Source of the DNA: Escherichia phage vB-Eco-KMB38
Sequence record: OR525701.1
Strand: one strand, 5' to 3'
Length of the DNA: 64,000 nt
The first letter of the stretch is position 1; each line of letters begins with the position of its first letter. The notes under the pieces were generated by a model, which saw only the letters and a program-made list of their open reading frames with translations, had not been told where the DNA came from and made no database searches. The position numbers and the translations under genes were made by a program. Of this stretch, positions 4,892 through 33,139 are shown piece after piece.

Positions 4892-6874
4892 ATGGCACTT
4901 CTCTCTCCGGGCGTTGAGCTCAAAGAAACTACCGTACAGAGTACTGTAGTTAATAACTCCACTGGTACTGCTGCCCTGGCTGGAAAATTCCAATGGGGAC
5001 CTGCATTCCAGATTAAACAAATCACCGATGAAGTTGCGTTGGTTGATATGTTTGGTACTCCTAATACGGATACAGCAGATTATTTCATGTCTGCTATGAA
5101 CTTCCTTCAATATGGTAACGACCTTCGTGTTGTACGCGCAGTCGATCGTGATACTGCTAAGAACTCATCTCCTGTGGCAGGAAACATTAATTTTACTATT
5201 TCTTCGGCTGGCACCAACTATAGAGTCGGTGATAAAGTTGTAGTTAAATATTCTACAGATATTATCGAACCAGACGGTGAAGTTACTTCGGTTGATTCTG
5301 ACGGTAAAATTTTGAATATCTTTATTCCTTCAGGTAAAATTATCGCTAAAGCGAAAGAAATCGGCGAATATCCTGAATTAGGTTCAAACTGGACTGCCGA
5401 AATGTCTGGGTCTTCTTCTGGTCTGTCTGCAGTAATTACTATTGATTCTGTTGTAATGGATTCTGGTATTCTGTTGACTGAAGTTGAAACTTCAGAAGAA
5501 GCTATTACTTCTCTAACTTTCCAAGAATCTATTAAAAAATACGGTGTCCCGGGTGTAGTTGCTCTTTATCCTGGTGAACTTGGCGACCAGCTCGAAATTG
5601 AAATCGTATCTAAAGCAGACTATGACAAAGGTGCTTCGGCCCAGTTAAAAATTTATCCTGATGGTGGTACTCGTGCATCTACTGCTAAAGCAATCTTTGG
5701 GTATGGCCCGCAAACTGATGACCAATATGCAATTATCGTTCGTCGCAACGACGCGGTAGTCCAGAGCGTAGTTCTTTCTACTAAACGTGGTGAACGCGAT
5801 ATTTATGGTAGCAATATCTTCATTGATGATTTCTTTGCTAAAGGCGCAAGCAATTATATTTTCGCTACGGCACAAGGTTGGCCAAAAGGTTTCTCTGGCG
5901 TAATCAAACTGAATGGTGGCTTATCATCTAATGAAACGGTTGAAGCCGGTGATTTAATGGAAGCTTGGGATTTGTTTGCTGACCGTGAATCGGTTAATGC
6001 ACAGTTGTTTATTGCTGGTTCTTGTGCTGGTGAATCTTTAGAAGTTGCTTCTACAGTTCAGAAACATGTTGTAGCAATTGGTGATTCTCGTCAAGATTGC
6101 TTGGTTCTTTGCTCACCGCCACGTGCAACTATAGTCGGTATTCCTGTTAATCGTGCAGTTGATAATCTGGTTGATTGGCGTACAGCGTCAGGAACTTACA
6201 CTGATAATAACTTTAATATAAGTTCTACTTATGCTGCTATTGATGGTAACTATAAATATCAATATGACAAATATAACGATGTGAATCGTTGGGTTCCATT
6301 AGCTGCTGATATCGCCGGTCTTTGTGCTCGAACAGACAATATTTCTCAGCCTTGGATGTCTCCAGCCGGTTATAACCGTGGACAAATTCTTAACGTTATT
6401 AAGCTTGCAATTGAAACTCGTCAAGCACAGCGTGATCGTTTGTATCAAGAAGCTATTAACCCTGTTACTGGTACCGGTGGTGATGGATATGTTCTGTACG
6501 GTGATAAAACTGCCACTTCTGTTCCTTCGCCATTTGACCGTATTAACGTACGTCGTTTGTTTAACATGGTTAAAACGAACATTGGTTCAGCATCCAAATA
6601 TCGCCTATTTGAATTGAACAACGCATTTACCCGTTCGTCTTTCCGTACAGAGACTTCTCAATATCTACAGGGTATTAAAGCTCTCGGTGGTGTATATAAC
6701 TTTAAAGTTGTTTGTGATACTACCAATAACACCCCAGCAGTTATCGACCGTAATGAATTTGTAGCTACTTTCTACTTACAACCTGCCCGCTCGATAAATT
6801 ATATTACGTTGAACTTTGTAGCAACAGCAACTGGCGCTGATTTCGACGAACTGATTGGTGCTGTAGGTGGCTAA
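4892..6874 (+). CDS. 18: tail sheath protein gp18
   Basis: 660 aa, preceded by TATAAATA late promoter; size and synteny match T4 gp18. Confidence 0.93.
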   Translation: MALLSPGVELKETTVQSTVVNNSTGTAALAGKFQWGPAFQIKQITDEVALVDMFGTPNTDTADYFMSAMNFLQYGNDLRVVRAVDRDTAKNSSPVAGNINFTISSAGTNYRVGDKVVVKYSTDIIEPDGEVTSVDSDGKILNIFIPSGKIIAKAKEIGEYPELGSNWTAEMSGSSSGLSAVITIDSVVMDSGILLTEVETSEEAITSLTFQESIKKYGVPGVVALYPGELGDQLEIEIVSKADYDKGASAQLKIYPDGGTRASTAKAIFGYGPQTDDQYAIIVRRNDAVVQSVVLSTKRGERDIYGSNIFIDDFFAKGASNYIFATAQGWPKGFSGVIKLNGGLSSNETVEAGDLMEAWDLFADRESVNAQLFIAGSCAGESLEVASTVQKHVVAIGDSRQDCLVLCSPPRATIVGIPVNRAVDNLVDWRTASGTYTDNNFNISSTYAAIDGNYKYQYDKYNDVNRWVPLAADIAGLCARTDNISQPWMSPAGYNRGQILNVIKLAIETRQAQRDRLYQEAINPVTGTGGDGYVLYGDKTATSVPSPFDRINVRRLFNMVKTNIGSASKYRLFELNNAFTRSSFRTETSQYLQGIKALGGVYNFKVVCDTTNNTPAVIDRNEFVATFYLQPARSINYITLNFVATATGADFDELIGAVGG

Positions 6875-6887
6875 TAAGACGCCTGAT

Positions 6888-6905
6888 GGGCTATTTCGGT
6901 AGCCC
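6888..6905 (+). other. UUCG-tetraloop hairpin after gene 18
   Basis: gggctatTTCGgtagccc directly upstream of the gene 19 late promoter; no T-run. Confidence 0.5.
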
Positions 6906-6906
6906 A

Positions 6907-6914
6907 TATAAATA
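6907..6914 (+). promoter_or_regulatory. late promoter TATAAATA (gene 19)
   Basis: Exact TATAAATA in the 18-19 intergenic region, just after a UUCG hairpin. Confidence 0.7.
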
Positions 6915-6986
6915 TACTATATCGTTTAAAAATTAATTCTATGGGCATCCGGTTAATCCTAAGCCCATATTACTACAGAGGCTAAT

Positions 6987-7478
6987 ATGTTTGTAGATGA
7001 CGTAACTCGTGCCTTCGAATCTGGTGATTTCGCTCGCCCTAACCTGTTCGAAGTAGAAATCTCTTATCTTGGGCAAAACTTTAGCTTCCAGTGTCGTGCT
7101 ACTGCTCTTCCTGCTGCGATCGTTGAAAAGGTTCCTGTTTCTTATATGAACCGTAAAATTAACGTGGCCGGTGACCGTACATTCGATGATTGGACTATTA
7201 CAGTAATGAACGACGATGCTCATAGTATTCGTCAGAAATTCGTTGATTGGCAAGGTATTGCAGCAGGACAAGGTAATGAAATTACCGGTGGTAAACCTGC
7301 TGAATATAAAAAGTCTGCTATCGTTCGTCAATTTGCTCGTGATGCTAAAACGGTCACTAAAGAAGTTGAAATTGTTGGCTTGTGGCCTACTAACGTTGGT
7401 GAAGTATCTCTTGATTGGGATTCGAATAACGAGATTGAAACGTTCGAAGTAACTCTTGCTCTTGATTGGTGGGAATAA
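6987..7478 (+). CDS. 19: tail tube protein gp19
   Basis: 163 aa, late promoter upstream; synteny. Confidence 0.93.
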   Translation: MFVDDVTRAFESGDFARPNLFEVEISYLGQNFSFQCRATALPAAIVEKVPVSYMNRKINVAGDRTFDDWTITVMNDDAHSIRQKFVDWQGIAAGQGNEITGGKPAEYKKSAIVRQFARDAKTVTKEVEIVGLWPTNVGEVSLDWDSNNEIETFEVTLALDWWE

Positions 7479-7526
7479 TCTGGTTGGGGAGAAATCCCCA
7501 GCTTCCCGTGATGACGGAGAAGTCCA

Positions 7527-7534
7527 TATAAATA
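7527..7534 (+). promoter_or_regulatory. late promoter TATAAATA (gene 20)
   Basis: Exact TATAAATA 29 nt upstream of the gene 20 ATG. Confidence 0.75.
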
Positions 7535-7562
7535 TAACTATAATTCCCATTCGGAGAATACA

Positions 7563-9134
7563 ATGAAATTTAATATCTTAAGTTTGTTTGCTCCATGGGC
7601 AAAAATGGACGAACGTGATTACAAAGACCAAGAAAAAGAAAATTTAGAATCTATCACCACACCAAAATTAGACGACGGTGCTAAAGAATACGAAGTATCT
7701 GAAAATGAAGCACAGCAAACATATAATGCTATGTTTCAGAGAATGTTCGGTAGTCAAGAACCAGGGCTCAAATCAACACGTGAATTAATCGATACGTATC
7801 GAAATTTGATGACGAACTATGAAGTGGATAATGCAGTCTCTGAAATAGTTTCCGATGCTATCGTATATGAAGATGATACAGAAGTCGTTTCTATAAATTT
7901 AGACAACACAAAATTTAGTCCAAATATCAAATCAATGATGTTGGATGAATTTAACGAAGTGTTAAATCATTTATCTTTCCAACGTAAAGGTTCAGATCAT
8001 TTTAGACGTTGGTATGTGGATTCTCGAATTTTCTTCCATAAAATTATTGACCCTAAACGCCCTAAAGAAGGTATTAAAGAGCTTCGTCGTTTAGACCCAC
8101 GTCAAGTTCAATATGTCCGTGAAGTTATTACAACCACTGAAGCCGGTGTTAAAATAGTCAAGGGTTATAAAGAATATTTCATTTATGACACATCACACGA
8201 ATCTTATGCTTGTGATGGTCGCATATATGAAGCTGGCACAAAAATAAAAATCCCTAAAGCCGCGATTGTTTATGCCCATTCTGGTTTAGTTGATTGTTGT
8301 GGTAAAAATATCATTGGTTATTTGCATCGGGCTATTAAGCCGGCAAACCAATTAAAACTTCTTGAAGATGCCGTCGTAATTTATCGTATTACTCGTGCTC
8401 CTGATCGTCGTGTATGGTACGTTGATACAGGTAATATGCCTTCAAGAAAAGCAGCAGAACATATGCAACATGTTATGAATACGATGAAAAACCGTATTGC
8501 ATATGATGCTACTACAGGCAAGATTAAAAACCAGCAGCATATTATGTCGATGACCGAAGATTATTGGTTACAACGACGTGATGGTAAAGCAGTAACAGAA
8601 GTTGATACATTACCGGGTGCAGATAATACTGGAAATATGGAAGATGTACGTTGGTTCCGTAATGCGCTTTATATGGCTTTACGTATTCCTATTACCCGTA
8701 TTCCAAGCGACCAAGGTGGTATACAGTTTGATGCTGGTACTTCTATTACACGAGATGAATTGTCGTTTGGTAAATTTATTCGTGAGCTGCAACATAAATT
8801 TGAAGAGATATTCCTAGACCCGCTTAAAACTAATTTAATTCTTAAAGGAATTATTACAGAAGATGAGTGGAATGATGAAATAAATAATATTAAGATAAAA
8901 TTTCATCGGGATAGTTATTTCTCGGAATTAAAGGATGCTGAGATTCTGGAGCGTCGCATTAATATGCTTCAGATGGCCGAACCATTTATTGGTAAATATA
9001 TTTCTCACAGAACAGCTATGAAAGATATTCTTCAGATGTCTGACGAGGAAATTGAACAAGAGGCTAAGCAAATTGAAGAAGAGTCGAAAGAGGCTCGTTT
9101 CCAAGACCCCGACCAAGAACAAGAGGATTTTTAA
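7563..9134 (+). CDS. 20: portal vertex protein gp20
   Basis: 523 aa, late promoter upstream; synteny and size. Confidence 0.93.
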
Positions 9135-26858: not shown

Positions 26859-27968
26859 ATGATTAGTGTAAAAGAAATAGTAGTAGATGCAAAGGATTTA
26901 AATAAAGCAATCCCAGTCTCAGAAAGTGCTGGGCAAAGCACTAAAACCGAAACAACTACTAAAACTTATGTTGCTCAATTTCCTACAGGAAGAGCAGCCG
27001 GAAATGACTCCACAGGAGACTTCCAGGTAACAGACCTTTATAAGAATGGATTATTATTTACCGCGTACAATATGTCTGCACGCGATTCAGGATCCCTCAG
27101 GAATTTACGTCCTGCATACGCCGGGACTTCATCCAATGGTATCATATCAGATTTAACTGATAATGTGAAAGATGCAGTGACTAAATTCTCAAATGGATTG
27201 CTTCCTGCTGGAGCTAATAAATCTACCATAAATAAAACTCCTGTTGCCAATATCCTGTTGCCACGTTCCAAATCTGACGTTGATACAACTTCACATCGTT
27301 TTAATGATATCGGTGATAGTCTTATTACTAAAGGTGGAGGTACTGCTACGGGTGTTTTAAGTAACATTGCTTCTACTGCAGTCTTTGGTGCATTAGATTC
27401 TATTACCCAGGGGCTTATGGCTGATAATAACGAACAGATTTATACGACTTCTCGTAGTATGTATGGTGGTGCCGAGAACCGTACTAAAGTCTTTACATGG
27501 GATTTAACTCCACGTTCAACTGAAGACCTTATGGCTATTATAAACATTTACCAGTATTTTAACTATTTCTCATATGGTGAGACCGGTAAATCACAGTACG
27601 CCCAAGAGATTAAAAGTTATTTAGACGAATGGTACCGTTCAACGTTTATTGAGCCTATGACCCCAGACGATGCTGTAAAAAATAAGACATTGTTTGAAAA
27701 GATTACTGCGTCATTAACAAACGTATTAGTTGTAAGCAACCCTACGATTTGGATGGTTAAAAACTTTGGACACACATCTAAATTTGACGGGTTAACTGAT
27801 GTATTTGGCCCATGTCAAATTCAAAGCGTACGTTTTGATAAAACTCCAAATGGACAATTTAATGGTCTTGCTGTTGCTCCTAACTTACCGTCAACATTTA
27901 CGTTAGAGGTAACAATGCGAGAAATTATTACATTAAACCGTTCTTCACTTTATGCGGGGACTTTCTAA
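26859..27968 (+). CDS. 48: baseplate tail-tube junction protein gp48
   Basis: 369 aa; synteny. Confidence 0.88.
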   Translation: MISVKEIVVDAKDLNKAIPVSESAGQSTKTETTTKTYVAQFPTGRAAGNDSTGDFQVTDLYKNGLLFTAYNMSARDSGSLRNLRPAYAGTSSNGIISDLTDNVKDAVTKFSNGLLPAGANKSTINKTPVANILLPRSKSDVDTTSHRFNDIGDSLITKGGGTATGVLSNIASTAVFGALDSITQGLMADNNEQIYTTSRSMYGGAENRTKVFTWDLTPRSTEDLMAIINIYQYFNYFSYGETGKSQYAQEIKSYLDEWYRSTFIEPMTPDDAVKNKTLFEKITASLTNVLVVSNPTIWMVKNFGHTSKFDGLTDVFGPCQIQSVRFDKTPNGQFNGLAVAPNLPSTFTLEVTMREIITLNRSSLYAGTF

Positions 27969-28930
27969 TGTACTCTTTAGAAGAATTTAATAACCAAGCT
28001 ATAAATGCAGATTTCCAACGAAACAATATGTTTAGTTGTGTATTTGCTACTACACCGTCGACTAAATCATCTTCACTAATTTCGTCAATTGGTAGTTTTG
28101 CTTATAATAACTTAGGGTTGGATTCAGATTGGCTAGGATTGACTCAAGGTGATATCAATCAGGGCGTTACAACCCTGATTACAGCAGGAACACAGAAATT
28201 AATTCGAAAATCAGGTGTAAGTAAATATCTGATTGGAGCAATGAGTCAACGTACGGTACAAAGCTTGTTAGGTGAGTTCACAGTAGGAGCTTATCTGATA
28301 GACTTCTTCAATATGGCATATAATAATACAGGTTTAATGATTTATTCTGTAAAAATGCCTGAGAACCGATTATCTTATGAAACGGATTTCAACTATAACT
28401 CACCGAACATCCGAATTACCGGTCGAGAAATGGACCCGTTAGTAATAAGCTTTAGAATGGATTCCGAAGCATCCAACTTTAGAGCAATGCAGGACTGGGT
28501 AAACTCAGTCCAAGACCCTGTAACAGGTCTTCGCGCTTTACCACAAGACGTCGAAGCAGATATTCAGGTTAATTTACATGCACGAAATGGTTTACCGCAT
28601 ACCGCTGTCATGTTCACCGGATGTATTCCTGTTAGTGTCTCTTCTCCTGAGTTAACGTATGATGGTGATAATCAGATAACAGTTTTTGACGTAACATTTG
28701 CTTATCGCGTTATGCAATCAGGTGCTGTAAATAGACAGGCTGCTTTAGAGTGGTTGGAATCAGGACTTATTAGTAGTGTTTCAGGAATGTTTGGAAATAA
28801 TCAGAATGATTCTGGTCTAGGAAGTGCAGTATCAAGACTTTCTAGATTAGGTGGGACCGCCGGAGGTGTGTCTAATATAAACACATTGACAGGTGTGGTG
28901 AATTCTACATCAAGAGTTTTAGGACTATAA
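27968..28930 (+). CDS. 54: baseplate tail-tube initiator gp54
   Basis: 320 aa; synteny; bidirectional terminator follows. Confidence 0.88.
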   Translation: MYSLEEFNNQAINADFQRNNMFSCVFATTPSTKSSSLISSIGSFAYNNLGLDSDWLGLTQGDINQGVTTLITAGTQKLIRKSGVSKYLIGAMSQRTVQSLLGEFTVGAYLIDFFNMAYNNTGLMIYSVKMPENRLSYETDFNYNSPNIRITGREMDPLVISFRMDSEASNFRAMQDWVNSVQDPVTGLRALPQDVEADIQVNLHARNGLPHTAVMFTGCIPVSVSSPELTYDGDNQITVFDVTFAYRVMQSGAVNRQAALEWLESGLISSVSGMFGNNQNDSGLGSAVSRLSRLGGTAGGVSNINTLTGVVNSTSRVLGL

Positions 28931-28962
28931 GAAAAAGGGAGACGTTGTCTCCCTTTAGGGGT
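28931..28962. terminator. bidirectional terminator between gene 54 and the alt-downstream ORF
   Basis: gggagacgttgtctccc flanked by AAAAA and TTT. Confidence 0.7.
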
Positions 28963-29256
28963 TTATTTACGGAATGAAAGGAATGCTGGTGCTCGGAATG
29001 GAGTATCATCTTTAGAGTATTTAACTAATACGACCATTGGTACCTCTGTTTCTAAATGTCCTGTCAATACACCGATAAAAATTTGATCAGTGTGCTCAGG
29101 GTCACGAAAGTTTTTAAGAGGTTCCATAGCAATATGGAATGCACCTGGGAATACTCGATTCAATTCGTCAATCACAGCTTCGTTAAAAACATCATCCGCT
29201 GGGATAACATCTTCAACTACTAGTTCTTGACCATTAAAGCGAAGCATAGATTTCAT
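28963..29256 (-). CDS. hypothetical protein (alt-downstream ORF)
   Basis: 97 aa from ATG behind GAGGAAAA; early promoter at 29286-29315; track ORF is extended through the promoter. Confidence 0.55.
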   Translation of the reverse strand: MKSMLRFNGQELVVEDVIPADDVFNEAVIDELNRVFPGAFHIAMEPLKNFRDPEHTDQIFIGVLTGHLETEVPMVVLVKYSKDDTPFRAPAFLSFRK

Positions 29257-29285
29257 AACGTTTTCCTCATGTTGTTGATAGGATG

Positions 29286-29315
29286 ATAGTATCACACATC
29301 CATGTGTTTGTAAAC
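29286..29315 (-). promoter_or_regulatory. early promoter
   Basis: Minus strand GTTTACaaacacatggatgtgtgaTACTAT followed by the conserved leader caacaacatgaggaaaa and ATG. Confidence 0.65.
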
Positions 29316-31402
29316 TATCCTTGGAAAAATTTAAACGGAACTGATTCTAAATCCATTAAAGATGCTAACAATTCCAAACCTTTAGGTGCACTAGTTTTTT
29401 CTACAAATGAGGAGAACGATACCAGCTCATCAGATTCGATTTCACCCGTCATAGCGACCACCTCGCCTGTTTCCATGAGAACATCACCATCGTAAATGAC
29501 AGCTTCATCTAACTGGTCTGAAGACATGACTTCAGCTTGAATAAATTTAAGGTTGGATTCTAAACCTGCACCAGTGTCAGATGACGCATCTGTAATTTTA
29601 TTTATCTGCAAGAGAATGCCTCTAGGCAAAATAATTTCTTGCTCATTAGGGTGATTACTCAACTGTCCTGGATAAATCACGTTAACTTTATGGGCGCCAT
29701 CAATAGCCCATCCAACGTTAACACGGATTTGTTCTGGCGCATGCATAGCTGTTCTTACTTGACTAGGAGAAATAGTAACACCTTCGTCATTATTGTCAAT
29801 GTTAAGCTCTTTGCGAACTTCTTCAGGAGCAAGTCCAAGGGCAACGTTCTCTTTAAACCCACCGAAAATAATAGGAGCTAGTGAAGTGGAAACATAGTTT
29901 CTGAAGTAGAATACCTTATTTTTAACCATTGCTTCGTAAATAGGCATTCTGATAGACTGAGCTCTATATAACGTTAGACCTTCAGGTAAACGATCTCCAT
30001 TTAAAAACGCCGAATCAAGACCATCAATAGCGCGTTTAACTTCATCTTCATCTGCAACATCGTAAAAATCTGGTTTATAACGACCTAACAACATATTATT
30101 GATATCTGTATATGCAGAAGAGGCATATTCACGAATAGCTCGTTTTTCAGCAACAGAGTATTGTTTAGGGTCACGATTCATTGTTATATTAAAGGTGCCT
30201 CTAGCTGATTCTCGTGCATAAGTATACATCACATTAGACAAGAACGCTGATTTACGTTGTTTCCAAGTTCTTTCAGATACTTCAGCTAAAACGTCGTCAG
30301 GCAGTTGGAAATTATCACGTCTAAAATCTTCAAACCATTCGTCTTTAATAGAGTCTGCAATTTCATTTGCAGCTTCAACAAAAGCAGCTAATGCTTTAAC
30401 AGATGTTGTTTTTTCGGTTTTAATTTTCTTAGCAAACTTTTCTAAAGTCGGCTTAATAACACTACCATAAGAAACTTCATCGGCAAATTTAAAGGATTCA
30501 TCAATACGATTATAAATCTTATTTTCGATATCAGCAACTAAAGTGCCTTTTGCTGTGGACGATGCTTGGGCTAGTACGATTTCATATGCTTCAGGAAGTA
30601 ATTCGGCTGTAGCCGGGCCACTAACTTCTTTAGCAGAATTTTCGTATTTCTGGAATAACTCACCTTCTTGACGGTCAGCTTCTAAAGATTGACTTGCTGC
30701 AATAGCACGACGAGAAATTTTAGTGCGAGCAATAACAGGCTTATCTTTACGTTTTTCTTCTACCGCGGCAATAGAACCAGCGATAGCCGTTTCTTTGGTG
30801 ACCTTTTCACCGGTCTTTTTACTCACATAAACTTCGCCAACATCAGAATCTACTTTCGTGTACAACTCTGTGTTAATGTTAGGGATGCCTTTAATATCTT
30901 CAATGTTGGCATTTTTACGAACCATCATCACATAGGTGTGTTTACCTGTGAATTGATACATTGCCGACAATACTTTAAAACGACCACCGGTTTTAGTAGA
31001 AACTAAACGAGCAAGAAGAGTTTGAAGCTGCTGTCCACGTCCTTTCAATTTCTTGGTAGGGAATCTGAACAGAACCGCATCCATACGAAGAGCTTTAACC
31101 TGTTCATATACTGTATTGAAAATGGTGTTGATTGCATCAATAGGAGCAGGACCAAGGCCGTTTTTCAATTCAGCGAGATTACCCTTTTCAGACAGACTCA
31201 TAATAACAACATGGGCATATTTGTCGCCAAGTTTAACTTGTTTTACAGCATCGCCTTCAGAAAGGTAAGAGAATAAGCGAACTACGATGTTTGTATCGAT
31301 ATCACCAATTTTCCAGACTTGTGGAACTTTAGCTTTAGGGTTCAAATTGACGACAGGAAGACTGCCTTCAGATTCAAACACTTCATTTAATTGTTCAGAC
31401 AT
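29315..31402 (-). CDS. alt: Alt ADP-ribosyltransferase (packaged, modifies host RNA polymerase)
   Basis: 695 aa; resembles T4 Alt as recalled (e.g. ...VFYFRNYVSTSL...); synteny next to gene 30. Confidence 0.88.
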   Translation of the reverse strand: MSEQLNEVFESEGSLPVVNLNPKAKVPQVWKIGDIDTNIVVRLFSYLSEGDAVKQVKLGDKYAHVVIMSLSEKGNLAELKNGLGPAPIDAINTIFNTVYEQVKALRMDAVLFRFPTKKLKGRGQQLQTLLARLVSTKTGGRFKVLSAMYQFTGKHTYVMMVRKNANIEDIKGIPNINTELYTKVDSDVGEVYVSKKTGEKVTKETAIAGSIAAVEEKRKDKPVIARTKISRRAIAASQSLEADRQEGELFQKYENSAKEVSGPATAELLPEAYEIVLAQASSTAKGTLVADIENKIYNRIDESFKFADEVSYGSVIKPTLEKFAKKIKTEKTTSVKALAAFVEAANEIADSIKDEWFEDFRRDNFQLPDDVLAEVSERTWKQRKSAFLSNVMYTYARESARGTFNITMNRDPKQYSVAEKRAIREYASSAYTDINNMLLGRYKPDFYDVADEDEVKRAIDGLDSAFLNGDRLPEGLTLYRAQSIRMPIYEAMVKNKVFYFRNYVSTSLAPIIFGGFKENVALGLAPEEVRKELNIDNNDEGVTISPSQVRTAMHAPEQIRVNVGWAIDGAHKVNVIYPGQLSNHPNEQEIILPRGILLQINKITDASSDTGAGLESNLKFIQAEVMSSDQLDEAVIYDGDVLMETGEVVAMTGEIESDELVSFSSFVEKTSAPKGLELLASLMDLESVPFKFFQG

Positions 31403-31422
31403 AGTGTTTTCCTTTTAGTAAT

Positions 31423-31440
31423 AATTTATATTTATGCCAA
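31423..31440 (-). promoter_or_regulatory. late-promoter-like element upstream of alt
   Basis: Minus strand reads cATAAATATAAATT, a 7/8 match to TATAAATA, ~20 nt upstream of the alt ATG and just after a UUCG terminator. Confidence 0.4.
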
Positions 31441-31441
31441 A

Positions 31442-31459
31442 AAGAGCCCGAAGGCTCTT
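31442..31459 (-). terminator. UUCG hairpin terminator upstream of the alt late promoter
   Basis: Minus strand aagagccTTCGggctctt followed by TTTT. Confidence 0.6.
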
Positions 31460-31646
31460 AATCCACAATCGGGAGCAAAGTACGATAAACTTCAAAATTA
31501 GGGCCTTTTTCATACCCATCAACGTTATCTACGAAAACCCGATACGAATTTTCATTAGGAAAATCTAATATAATCTGAGAGCAAGAGGTGGAAACATCTC
31601 CACCATCCTTCTTAGCTACAATAACTGTTTCTAAATAAGCTTTCAT
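31458..31646 (-). CDS. hypothetical protein (62 aa)
   Basis: ATG overlaps the ligase stop (TAATG); followed by a UUCG hairpin terminator. Confidence 0.5.
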   Translation of the reverse strand: MKAYLETVIVAKKDGGDVSTSCSQIILDFPNENSYRVFVDNVDGYEKGPNFEVYRTLLPIVD

Positions 31647-33139
31647 TATAAACCTGTCTGGGACCACGGTCCAAATACATCTTCAAACGAATCCGCTTCT
31701 GTTTTATCAAAACGGAACCCTTTAATAATTGGAAGGAAAATACCTACAGTACCTTCACGGCCTTTAGAATGAACCCAACCATTACATTCACAATCAGCGA
31801 TACGTCCAATTAATTTACCTTCACGAGCTTCGGCCATTAATCGTTCACGGTCTAAATCATGACGCTCGTCTAAAGGAATAAGAACCTTTACACCGTCAAC
31901 TGTTTTATGAGTTGTATCTTTAAAACCTGAACCACAATCGGTTGTAATACGACGACAACGTGATACGAGTTCGACACCACCTAATTTGTTAGGGACTTTA
32001 GAGTGTTCATAGTATCCTACAACTTCTAAAGCGATATCAATAACTTCTTTAAATTTAATTAAATTCTTAGAGCGTTTGTTTTCCCAATATGAATCACGGT
32101 TTTTAAGGATAATACCTTCAAGACCTTGGTCAACATATTTTTTATAAACCACTTTAGCTTCGTCAAGATTACGAACTAACTGATTTTCAATTGGCTCAAT
32201 TCGCTTAAAGCCTTCAGCCATATTTTCAAGAGCAGCAAAACGAACATCGTATTTCTGACCTTTAATTTTGCCGTCAGAATAGACTTCATCTAAAGGAACA
32301 TAGTCCCAGGCTTGAAGAACCATACCTTCCGCTTCTTTAGGAGAAATAGTCCCTTGAAGAGATTTATTTGCTAAACCGTTTGAAGTGCTACGGTCTGCAA
32401 CTTGTACTTCTTCGGATTCTTCATTATCACCAAATAAGAACGACAGGTCATTTCCTGAGCTCACAGCCTTTTTAATATCAAATGAATGATAAACTAATTC
32501 ACCGTCGATTAAAACCCCATTAGGGTGTCTTTCACGAGCTTCTTTAGTCATTTCCATTAGTTCATCCGCTAATAGAGTAAGACCGTGGTATTCGTTACCG
32601 GCACGAGAAAAGAATTGAACACCATCATCGCGAACTTCAGCGAAACAACGAGCACCATCGGCTTTTAATTGAGCAAATGCGGGCCATTTAATATTTTTAG
32701 TAATCAATTTCTCGTCATATGCAGATGCTAACATCTGTGGCTGCAATTGAATAAGTCCAGGCCACACCTTATTCGCGATAGACACTGAAGCACCTACTTC
32801 AAGGTCGCGCATCATTACACGACGAAGGACTTCTACATCATCAGGTTTACCATCAGCGATATAACCCATGAGCTCTTTAATTGCCGCATTACCGGTGAGT
32901 TTACGAGTGGCTAATGTGAACTCAATAAAATCCAACATGTCATCTAATTCAAGAAGACCATATGCTTGAGACCTTTCACCTGGTCCTGGCCATTTCTTAA
33001 TATAATACTGGATACCACGTGCATATGTTAAACGATACACACGTTCAAGTAATTTGTTGTCCTTATTTTTCTTAAGGATTTCTTGTTTTGTTTTAGTAGA
33101 ACCGATCGCAGCTATTTGGTTTAAAATATCTAAAATCAT
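31646..33139 (-). CDS. 30: ATP-dependent DNA ligase gp30
   Basis: 497 aa; MILDILNQIAAIGSTK..., motif KADGARC; closely matches T4 DNA ligase as recalled. Confidence 0.95.
   Translation of the reverse strand: MILDILNQIAAIGSTKTKQEILKKNKDNKLLERVYRLTYARGIQYYIKKWPGPGERSQAYGLLELDDMLDFIEFTLATRKLTGNAAIKELMGYIADGKPDDVEVLRRVMMRDLEVGASVSIANKVWPGLIQLQPQMLASAYDEKLITKNIKWPAFAQLKADGARCFAEVRDDGVQFFSRAGNEYHGLTLLADELMEMTKEARERHPNGVLIDGELVYHSFDIKKAVSSGNDLSFLFGDNEESEEVQVADRSTSNGLANKSLQGTISPKEAEGMVLQAWDYVPLDEVYSDGKIKGQKYDVRFAALENMAEGFKRIEPIENQLVRNLDEAKVVYKKYVDQGLEGIILKNRDSYWENKRSKNLIKFKEVIDIALEVVGYYEHSKVPNKLGGVELVSRCRRITTDCGSGFKDTTHKTVDGVKVLIPLDERHDLDRERLMAEAREGKLIGRIADCECNGWVHSKGREGTVGIFLPIIKGFRFDKTEADSFEDVFGPWSQTGL

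Follow-up and report, generated by a model that had tools for sequence, protein, structure and literature searches.

The single small ORF between gene 54 and alt of Escherichia phage vB-Eco-KMB38 is a predicted ortholog of T4 alt.-3

In phage T4 (NC_000866), the gene order is 54, alt.-3, alt.-2, alt.-1, alt, alt.1, 30; three small ORFs thus lie between gene 54 and alt, and the statement of an earlier note on the DNA studied here that T4 has several such ORFs is correct. A remark in the GenBank record itself describes alt.-1 and alt.-2 as the beginning of alt, duplicated long ago. T4 alt.-3 is uncharacterized, and a deletion mutant is viable (Vassallo et al. 2024, PMC11618068); that study is the only experimental work on Alt.-3 that we found. 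The wild-type T4 protein neither triggers nor blocks the CmdTAC defense; protection of the antitoxin CmdA from ClpP-dependent degradation was seen only with escape mutants whose Alt.-3 is lengthened at the C terminus, to 110 or 117 aa (PMC11618068). T4 alt.-3 belongs to the early RNA and early protein classes, and T4 proteomics detected the Alt.-3 and Alt.1 proteins but not Alt.-1 and Alt.-2 (PMC9697503 supplement).

The stretch of DNA analyzed here (the window) comprises 64,000 nucleotides of phage vB-Eco-KMB38 (OR525701.1). At positions 28800 to 31750, the sequence has 100% identity to Escherichia phages PTK and AlbertHofmann (BASEL Bas47, genus Mosigvirus), which identifies the window as a Mosigvirus (RB69-like T-even phage). 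The same positions are found at 95 to 99% identity in ~148 further records, all of which share the annotated layout. The single-ORF layout is nothing unusual: ~150 deposited genomes have it in their annotation, mostly with both small ORFs labeled "hypothetical protein." The locus is a standard Tevenvirinae module, ligase(30)-alt.1-alt-alt.-3, which ends at a hairpin common with gene 54 and has the following features:

27968 to 28930, plus strand: gene 54 (baseplate tail-tube initiator), a 320-aa ORF; phrog_45 tail tube, E 1.2e-68
28934 to 28956, not assigned to one strand: putative hairpin terminator common to the 54 and alt.-3 units, with a 10-bp stem (AAAGGGAGAC/GTCTCCCTTT), then TTCTT
28963 to 29256, minus strand: 97-aa ORF, predicted ortholog of T4 alt.-3 (DUF5498); 294 nt, with ATG at 29256-29254 and TAA at 28965-28963
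29263 to 29268, minus strand: Shine-Dalgarno sequence GAGGAA for alt.-3, 6 nt before the ATG, read from the sequence
29286 to 29315, minus strand: early-type sigma-70 promoter motif for alt.-3, with GTTTACA as −35, a 17-nt spacer, and TGATACTAT as extended −10
29315 to 31402, minus strand: alt, sole copy, Alt-like ADP-ribosyltransferase of 695 aa; phrog_802, E 1.9e-261
31423 to 31436, minus strand: late-promoter-like CATAAATA / TATAAATT, ~20 nt 5′ of the alt start codon, read from the sequence
31442 to 31459, minus strand: hairpin (7-bp stem, UUCG loop) that overlaps the stop codon of alt.1, read from the sequence
31458 to 31646, minus strand: 62-aa ORF, predicted ortholog of T4 alt.1, with 61 to 63% identity to T4 Alt.1
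31646 to 33139, minus strand: gene 30, ATP-dependent DNA ligase; phrog_114, E 3e-154

Gene 54, labeled baseplate tail tube initiator in AlbertHofmann (identical to the window here), is the convergent neighbor of the minus-strand ligase-alt unit, and gene 30 is labeled DNA ligase in the phages that are identical to the window at the locus. The predicted product of alt matches PF03496 (ADPrib_exo_Tox; E 6.5e-28, 97.8 bits versus a cutoff of 23.4). Window Alt shows 41 to 45% identity to T4 Alt and is less conserved than its neighbors Alt.-3 (52%) and Alt.1 (61%). Our joint reading, which we hold to be highly probable, is that of a standard module with orthologs of alt.-3 and alt.1 and of extra T4 ORFs that derive from a decayed alt paralog; no observation speaks against these identities or this history. 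The binder-type function that this reading includes for the small protein downstream of alt is held with low confidence.

The earlier note described one 97-aa ORF between gene 54 and alt, and both its coordinates and its length were exact. It is the only ORF that fits there: its stop codon is 32 bp from that of gene 54, a space occupied by the hairpin, and the 58 bp between the alt stop codon and its ATG leave no room for a further hidden gene. A program-made ORF list gives 110 aa for the same frame, from a GTG at 29295 (the 62-aa ORF is likewise GTG-extended, to 69 aa, although here, too, it is the ATG start that the homologs share). Judged from the sequence, the ATG is the supported start over this GTG, because the homologs all begin with MKS.., because GAGGAA lies upstream of the ATG, and because the GTG is upstream of the promoter −10. 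The ..TGAGGAA.. sequence is kept in most of the 10 phages compared, with variants in four Karamvirus and Marfavirus phages.

The 97-aa ORF appears to be a real gene and the Mosigvirus ortholog of T4 alt.-3. T4 Alt.-3 (96 aa) aligns with it end to end at 52% identity with one 1-residue gap, and its residues 1 to 97 cover positions 1 to 96 of the 96-position Pfam profile PF17602 (DUF5498) with 87.9 bits versus a cutoff of 27; it also matches phrog_1739 (E 1.9e-39). All eight residues that are invariant in the family alignment (M1, R6, E11, F24, F50, G66, F92, and F95) are present, as are the conserved termini, MKS..R..G.E.VVE and AF..FRK. A tblastn search with the 97-aa protein found a full-length counterpart at the same position in 835 phage records. 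In the window, as in the other phages compared, the Alt.-3 family gene closes the ligase-alt unit and runs toward gene 54.

From the presence of a single ORF, the earlier note had proposed that the accessory gene content next to the packaged ADP-ribosyltransferase differs from that of T4. This stands insofar as there is one ORF instead of three but is otherwise misleading: the retained ORF appears to be alt.-3 itself, the 62-aa ORF alt.1, and the two missing ORFs fragments of a decayed second alt paralog. That the single ORF is instead a different accessory gene, a lineage-specific replacement bringing novel cargo beside the ADP-ribosyltransferase, strikes us as very improbable. Such a replacement would account for a 54-alt interval with fewer ORFs than in T4 and for an identity to T4 Alt.-3 of only 52%; this value nevertheless exceeds the 41% found for Alt itself, the alignment is collinear over its full length with both termini conserved, the DUF5498 score is far above the cutoff, and position, strand, promoter, and terminator all match those of T4 alt.-3. 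It is scarcely credible that the T4 gene content is present here with alt.-1 and alt.-2 hidden by frameshifts (the situation that the earlier note had named as contradicting its proposal) or by missed ORF calls. We found nothing in favor of this: the spacer is only 58 bp and holds no alt.-1- or alt.-2-like sequence, and when T4 Alt.-1 and Alt.-2 were compared by tblastn with all 64 kb of the window, they matched only the 5′ end of alt itself. This confinement of the matches to alt argues that the window is truly without alt.-1 and alt.-2, as opposed to bearing a frameshifted annotation of them.

The number of small ORFs in T4 can be traced to a second copy of alt. T4 Alt.-1 (61 aa) corresponds to T4 Alt residues 1 to 62 at 56% identity, and Alt.-2 (67 aa) to residues 63 to 117 at 62%. 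Many Tequatroviruses (RB14, RB27, and T2-like phages) carry two tandem full-length alt paralogs; in RB14 and RB27 the two genes encode 697 and 685 aa, are 3 nt apart, and are followed by alt.-3. The second paralog, of 685 aa, is annotated "alt.-2" and occupies positions 6001 to 8058 of each extracted locus. When joined, T4 Alt.-1 and Alt.-2 are 86 to 87% identical to the N terminus of this RB27/RB14 protein. Comparison of the T4 and RB27 DNAs revealed that T4 lacks RB27 locus positions 6349 to 8038, ~1.69 kb inside the second paralog; the T4 remnant, at 2566 to 2951 of the T4 locus, consists of the 5′ 347 nt of the paralog plus its last ~40 nt, which T4 alt.-2 reads in another frame as its own 3′ end. 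Among the records of the phage collection, 402 keep the 1.69-kb segment and 91 have the contiguous T4-type junction; the paralog is thus intact in ~400 Tequatrovirus records and internally deleted in T4 and ~90 relatives. In the T4 lineage, the second paralog would have been hit by the ~1.69-kb internal deletion and by a disrupting mutation, giving rise to two short ORFs. On the strength of the paralog match, the deletion, and the T4 proteomics, the "several small alt.-x ORFs" of T4 would comprise alt.-3 and two pseudogene fragments of a second alt paralog, alt.-1 and alt.-2, which do not appear to be independent genes. In the window phage, tblastn against the whole 64-kb window yielded no alt-like match beyond alt itself.

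We sampled six phages of four other genera: EcS1 (Kagamiyamavirus); PS49, CkP1, and Pet-CM3-4 (Karamvirus); EI (Marfavirus); and SEA1 (Gelderlandvirus). All six have one alt, one alt.-3, and a convergent gene 54. Among the Tevenvirinae genera sampled, the window layout is therefore the commonest and T4 the exception: in Mosigviruses, as in the other genera, a single alt goes with a single small ORF downstream. Klebsiella phage EI has no alt.1 ORF, with a 60-nt ligase-alt gap (locus positions 1734 to 1795), and has kept alt.-3.

By presence and absence, the single-alt state is common and probably older, and the tandem paralog looks like a Tequatrovirus feature. The converse, a Mosigvirus ancestor with the tandem paralog and a clean later loss of that paralog (such as recombination of the two copies would cause), which would make the single copy secondary, seems unlikely to us. 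Since the paralogs are 3 nt apart in RB27, unequal recombination could indeed delete one copy without leaving a scar, and the second paralog is so divergent (31 to 41%) that it falls outside the other Alts, on a long branch of a midpoint-rooted NJ tree, which could mean that it is old. A long branch, however, may simply result from rapid change once the gene had been duplicated; over its first 117 aa, the paralog is closest to Tequatrovirus Alt (58 to 59%); and with one alt in six of six phages of four other genera as well as in the window, several independent clean losses would be needed. With an identity of only 31 to 41% to every other Alt, the adjacent copy included, the second paralog is either old or changing rapidly, and it may differ from Alt in target specificity.

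The earlier note also credited the 97-aa ORF with its own early promoter, and this claim gained support. A promoter scan returned TTTACA-17-TACTAT with TG at 29314 to 29286 (9 of 12 matches). The sequence right after the alt stop codon is GTTTACAAACACATGGATGTGTGATACTAT, and the −35 of the motif overlaps that stop codon. GTTTACA-N17-TGnTAyWAT occurs at the same place in all 10 phages examined, which represent 6 genera (the window, T4, RB14, RB27, and the six others); in T4, the motif falls inside the alt.-2 fragment, at its 3′ end. GTTTAC with an extended −10 is the signature of T4 early promoters. Given this conservation and the early expression of the T4 ortholog at both the RNA and the protein level, an own early promoter of alt.-3 is well supported, and we predict that it functions in the window phage.

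From this putative promoter, alt.-3 would be made early and independently of alt, which bears a late-type motif. In nine of nine phages compared, TATAAATA or CATAAATA is found at the same place upstream of alt; the former is the T4 late promoter consensus. A late-type motif in this position fits the view of Alt as a packaged protein made late. The T-run of the 28934-28956 hairpin is better on the minus strand, and a GC-rich hairpin is found at the same position in T4, RB27, EcS1, PS49, EI, CkP1, and SEA1. The hairpin at the alt.1 stop codon is likewise present in nine of nine phages, with a TTCG loop in eight and a variant in EI; it falls below the T-run rule of our terminator scan.

At the other end of alt, a separate 62-aa ORF was indeed present at 31458-31646, between ligase and alt, where the earlier note had placed it. 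It matches PF24647 (Phage_blade) with 100.9 bits versus a cutoff of 27 and phrog_1976 with E 4.4e-32, and, with its similarity to T4 Alt.1, is taken as the ortholog of T4 alt.1. Its ATG overlaps the ligase stop codon (TAATG), as that of T4 alt.1 does, and the overlap predicts that alt.1 is translationally coupled to the ligase gene.

Homology searches gave no clue to what the 97-aa protein does. Of 1.84 billion representatives scanned exhaustively with HMMER, 13 proved to be Alt.-3 family members, all of 44 to 111 aa, and a word-indexed homolog search returned one near-identical cluster only; the small number and short length of the HMMER members mean that there are no distant annotated relatives to lend a function. 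No NCBIfam model matched either small ORF, a sequence search of PDB chains gave no match for either (best E 1.6 and 1.9), and a literature search on DUF5498 or the phage blade protein found nothing. AlphaFold2 predicts a single domain (pLDDT 95.3, pTM 0.82) with the order beta-beta-alpha-beta-alpha-beta-beta. Foldseek comparison of this model with the PDB found no solved-structure neighbor (best E 0.25), and a BFVD fold search returned only uncharacterized proteins of T4-like phages. With a calculated pI of 4.9, the protein is acidic. It is small, has a single predicted domain, shows no catalytic signatures, is predicted to be made early, and has a dispensable counterpart in T4. Our best guess, offered with low confidence, is that it binds a host or phage protein in a nonenzymatic way and acts as a dispensable accessory factor in host takeover or counterdefense.

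The extreme C terminus of the Alt.-3 family, AFxxFRK-COOH, is strictly conserved, and in the model residues 87 to 96 form the predicted last beta-strand. Read-through of the TAA of the window alt.-3 would add ..TPKGRQRLPFSYSPKTLDVEF.. to this end. We considered whether AFxxFRK could be a free ClpX-docking tail, such as the XB peptide of SspB, and rejected this idea: residues 87 to 96 are predicted to lie inside the sheet, as its last strand, and the residue pattern differs from that of the XB peptide. The T4 gain-of-function escape mutants extend exactly the AFxxFRK end of Alt.-3 (PMC11618068). A role of Alt.-3 as the CmdTAC trigger or as a natural inhibitor of CmdTAC was likewise rejected, since the wild-type protein has neither effect and the deletion mutant does not escape (PMC11618068). 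Tevenvirinae phages of the BASEL collection are mostly CmdTAC sensitive, the only exceptions being Bas35 and Bas38 (PMC11618068); a Bas47-like phage with the window alt.-3 is therefore presumably sensitive as well.

Two bolder proposals concern the neighborhood of Alt.-3 and its escape mutants. In the first, Alt.-3 would be a partner of Alt (for instance, its chaperone, its inhibitor or immunity factor, or a helper in its packaging), which would explain its fixed place downstream: in all phages examined, including EI, which lacks alt.1, alt.-3 lies ~60 nt beyond alt or the second paralog. We find this quite unlikely, because the genes around the locus keep their order across T4-like genomes, such that adjacency says little, and because the two genes seem to be timed apart, alt.-3 having an early promoter motif and an early protein (in T4) and alt a late-type motif. 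In the second, Alt.-3 (DUF5498) would be a structurally new class of early effector that touches ClpXP-dependent proteolysis or Alt. The 13-member family, its universal retention beside alt in Tevenvirinae, a confidently predicted fold without a solved neighbor, and the inhibition of ClpP-dependent antitoxin degradation upon C-terminal extension lead to this proposal, which we judge decidedly unlikely. If it were true that wild-type Alt.-3 binds a protease or adaptor, the window ortholog would provide a handle on a new phage-encoded modulator of proteolysis. Alt.-3 may conceivably be linked to Alt or to host proteolysis, but such a link is unsupported, and we retain the tentative view of a nonenzymatic binding protein.

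The result in itself matters little; it corrects an artifact of comparison that arises when T4 is used as the reference. T4 is atypical in still bearing parts of a second alt, so that the apparent lack of alt.-x ORFs elsewhere among T-even phages is no sign of different cargo. We suggest that T4 annotations list alt.-1 and alt.-2 as probable pseudogene fragments and that Mosigvirus annotations replace "hypothetical protein" by the names alt.-3 (97-aa ORF) and alt.1 (62-aa ORF). The Alt.-3 family emerges as conserved, expressed early (in T4), and confidently predicted in its fold, for which we found no structural relatives.

Compared gene by gene with the described systems, the window 62-aa ORF shows no notable difference from T4 alt.1 (NP_049812, UniProt P39496): both have 62 aa, an overlap with ligase, and then a UUCG hairpin and a late-type motif before alt. 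T4 alt.-1 (NP_049810) and alt.-2 (NP_049809) occupy the 54-alt interval in T4 and are absent from the window, as is the tandem paralog that fills the slot between alt and alt.-3 in RB14 and RB27. The 97-aa ORF resembles T4 alt.-3 (NP_049808, UniProt P39493) in strand, in its place between alt and 54, in length (97 versus 96 aa), and in having an early-type promoter motif, a Shine-Dalgarno sequence, a downstream hairpin, and an acidic pI. It differs in its immediate neighbor, adjoining alt directly, whereas T4 alt.-3 follows the alt.-2 fragment and RB14/RB27 alt.-3 follows the second alt paralog; sequence divergence is the only other difference between the window ORF and T4 alt.-3.
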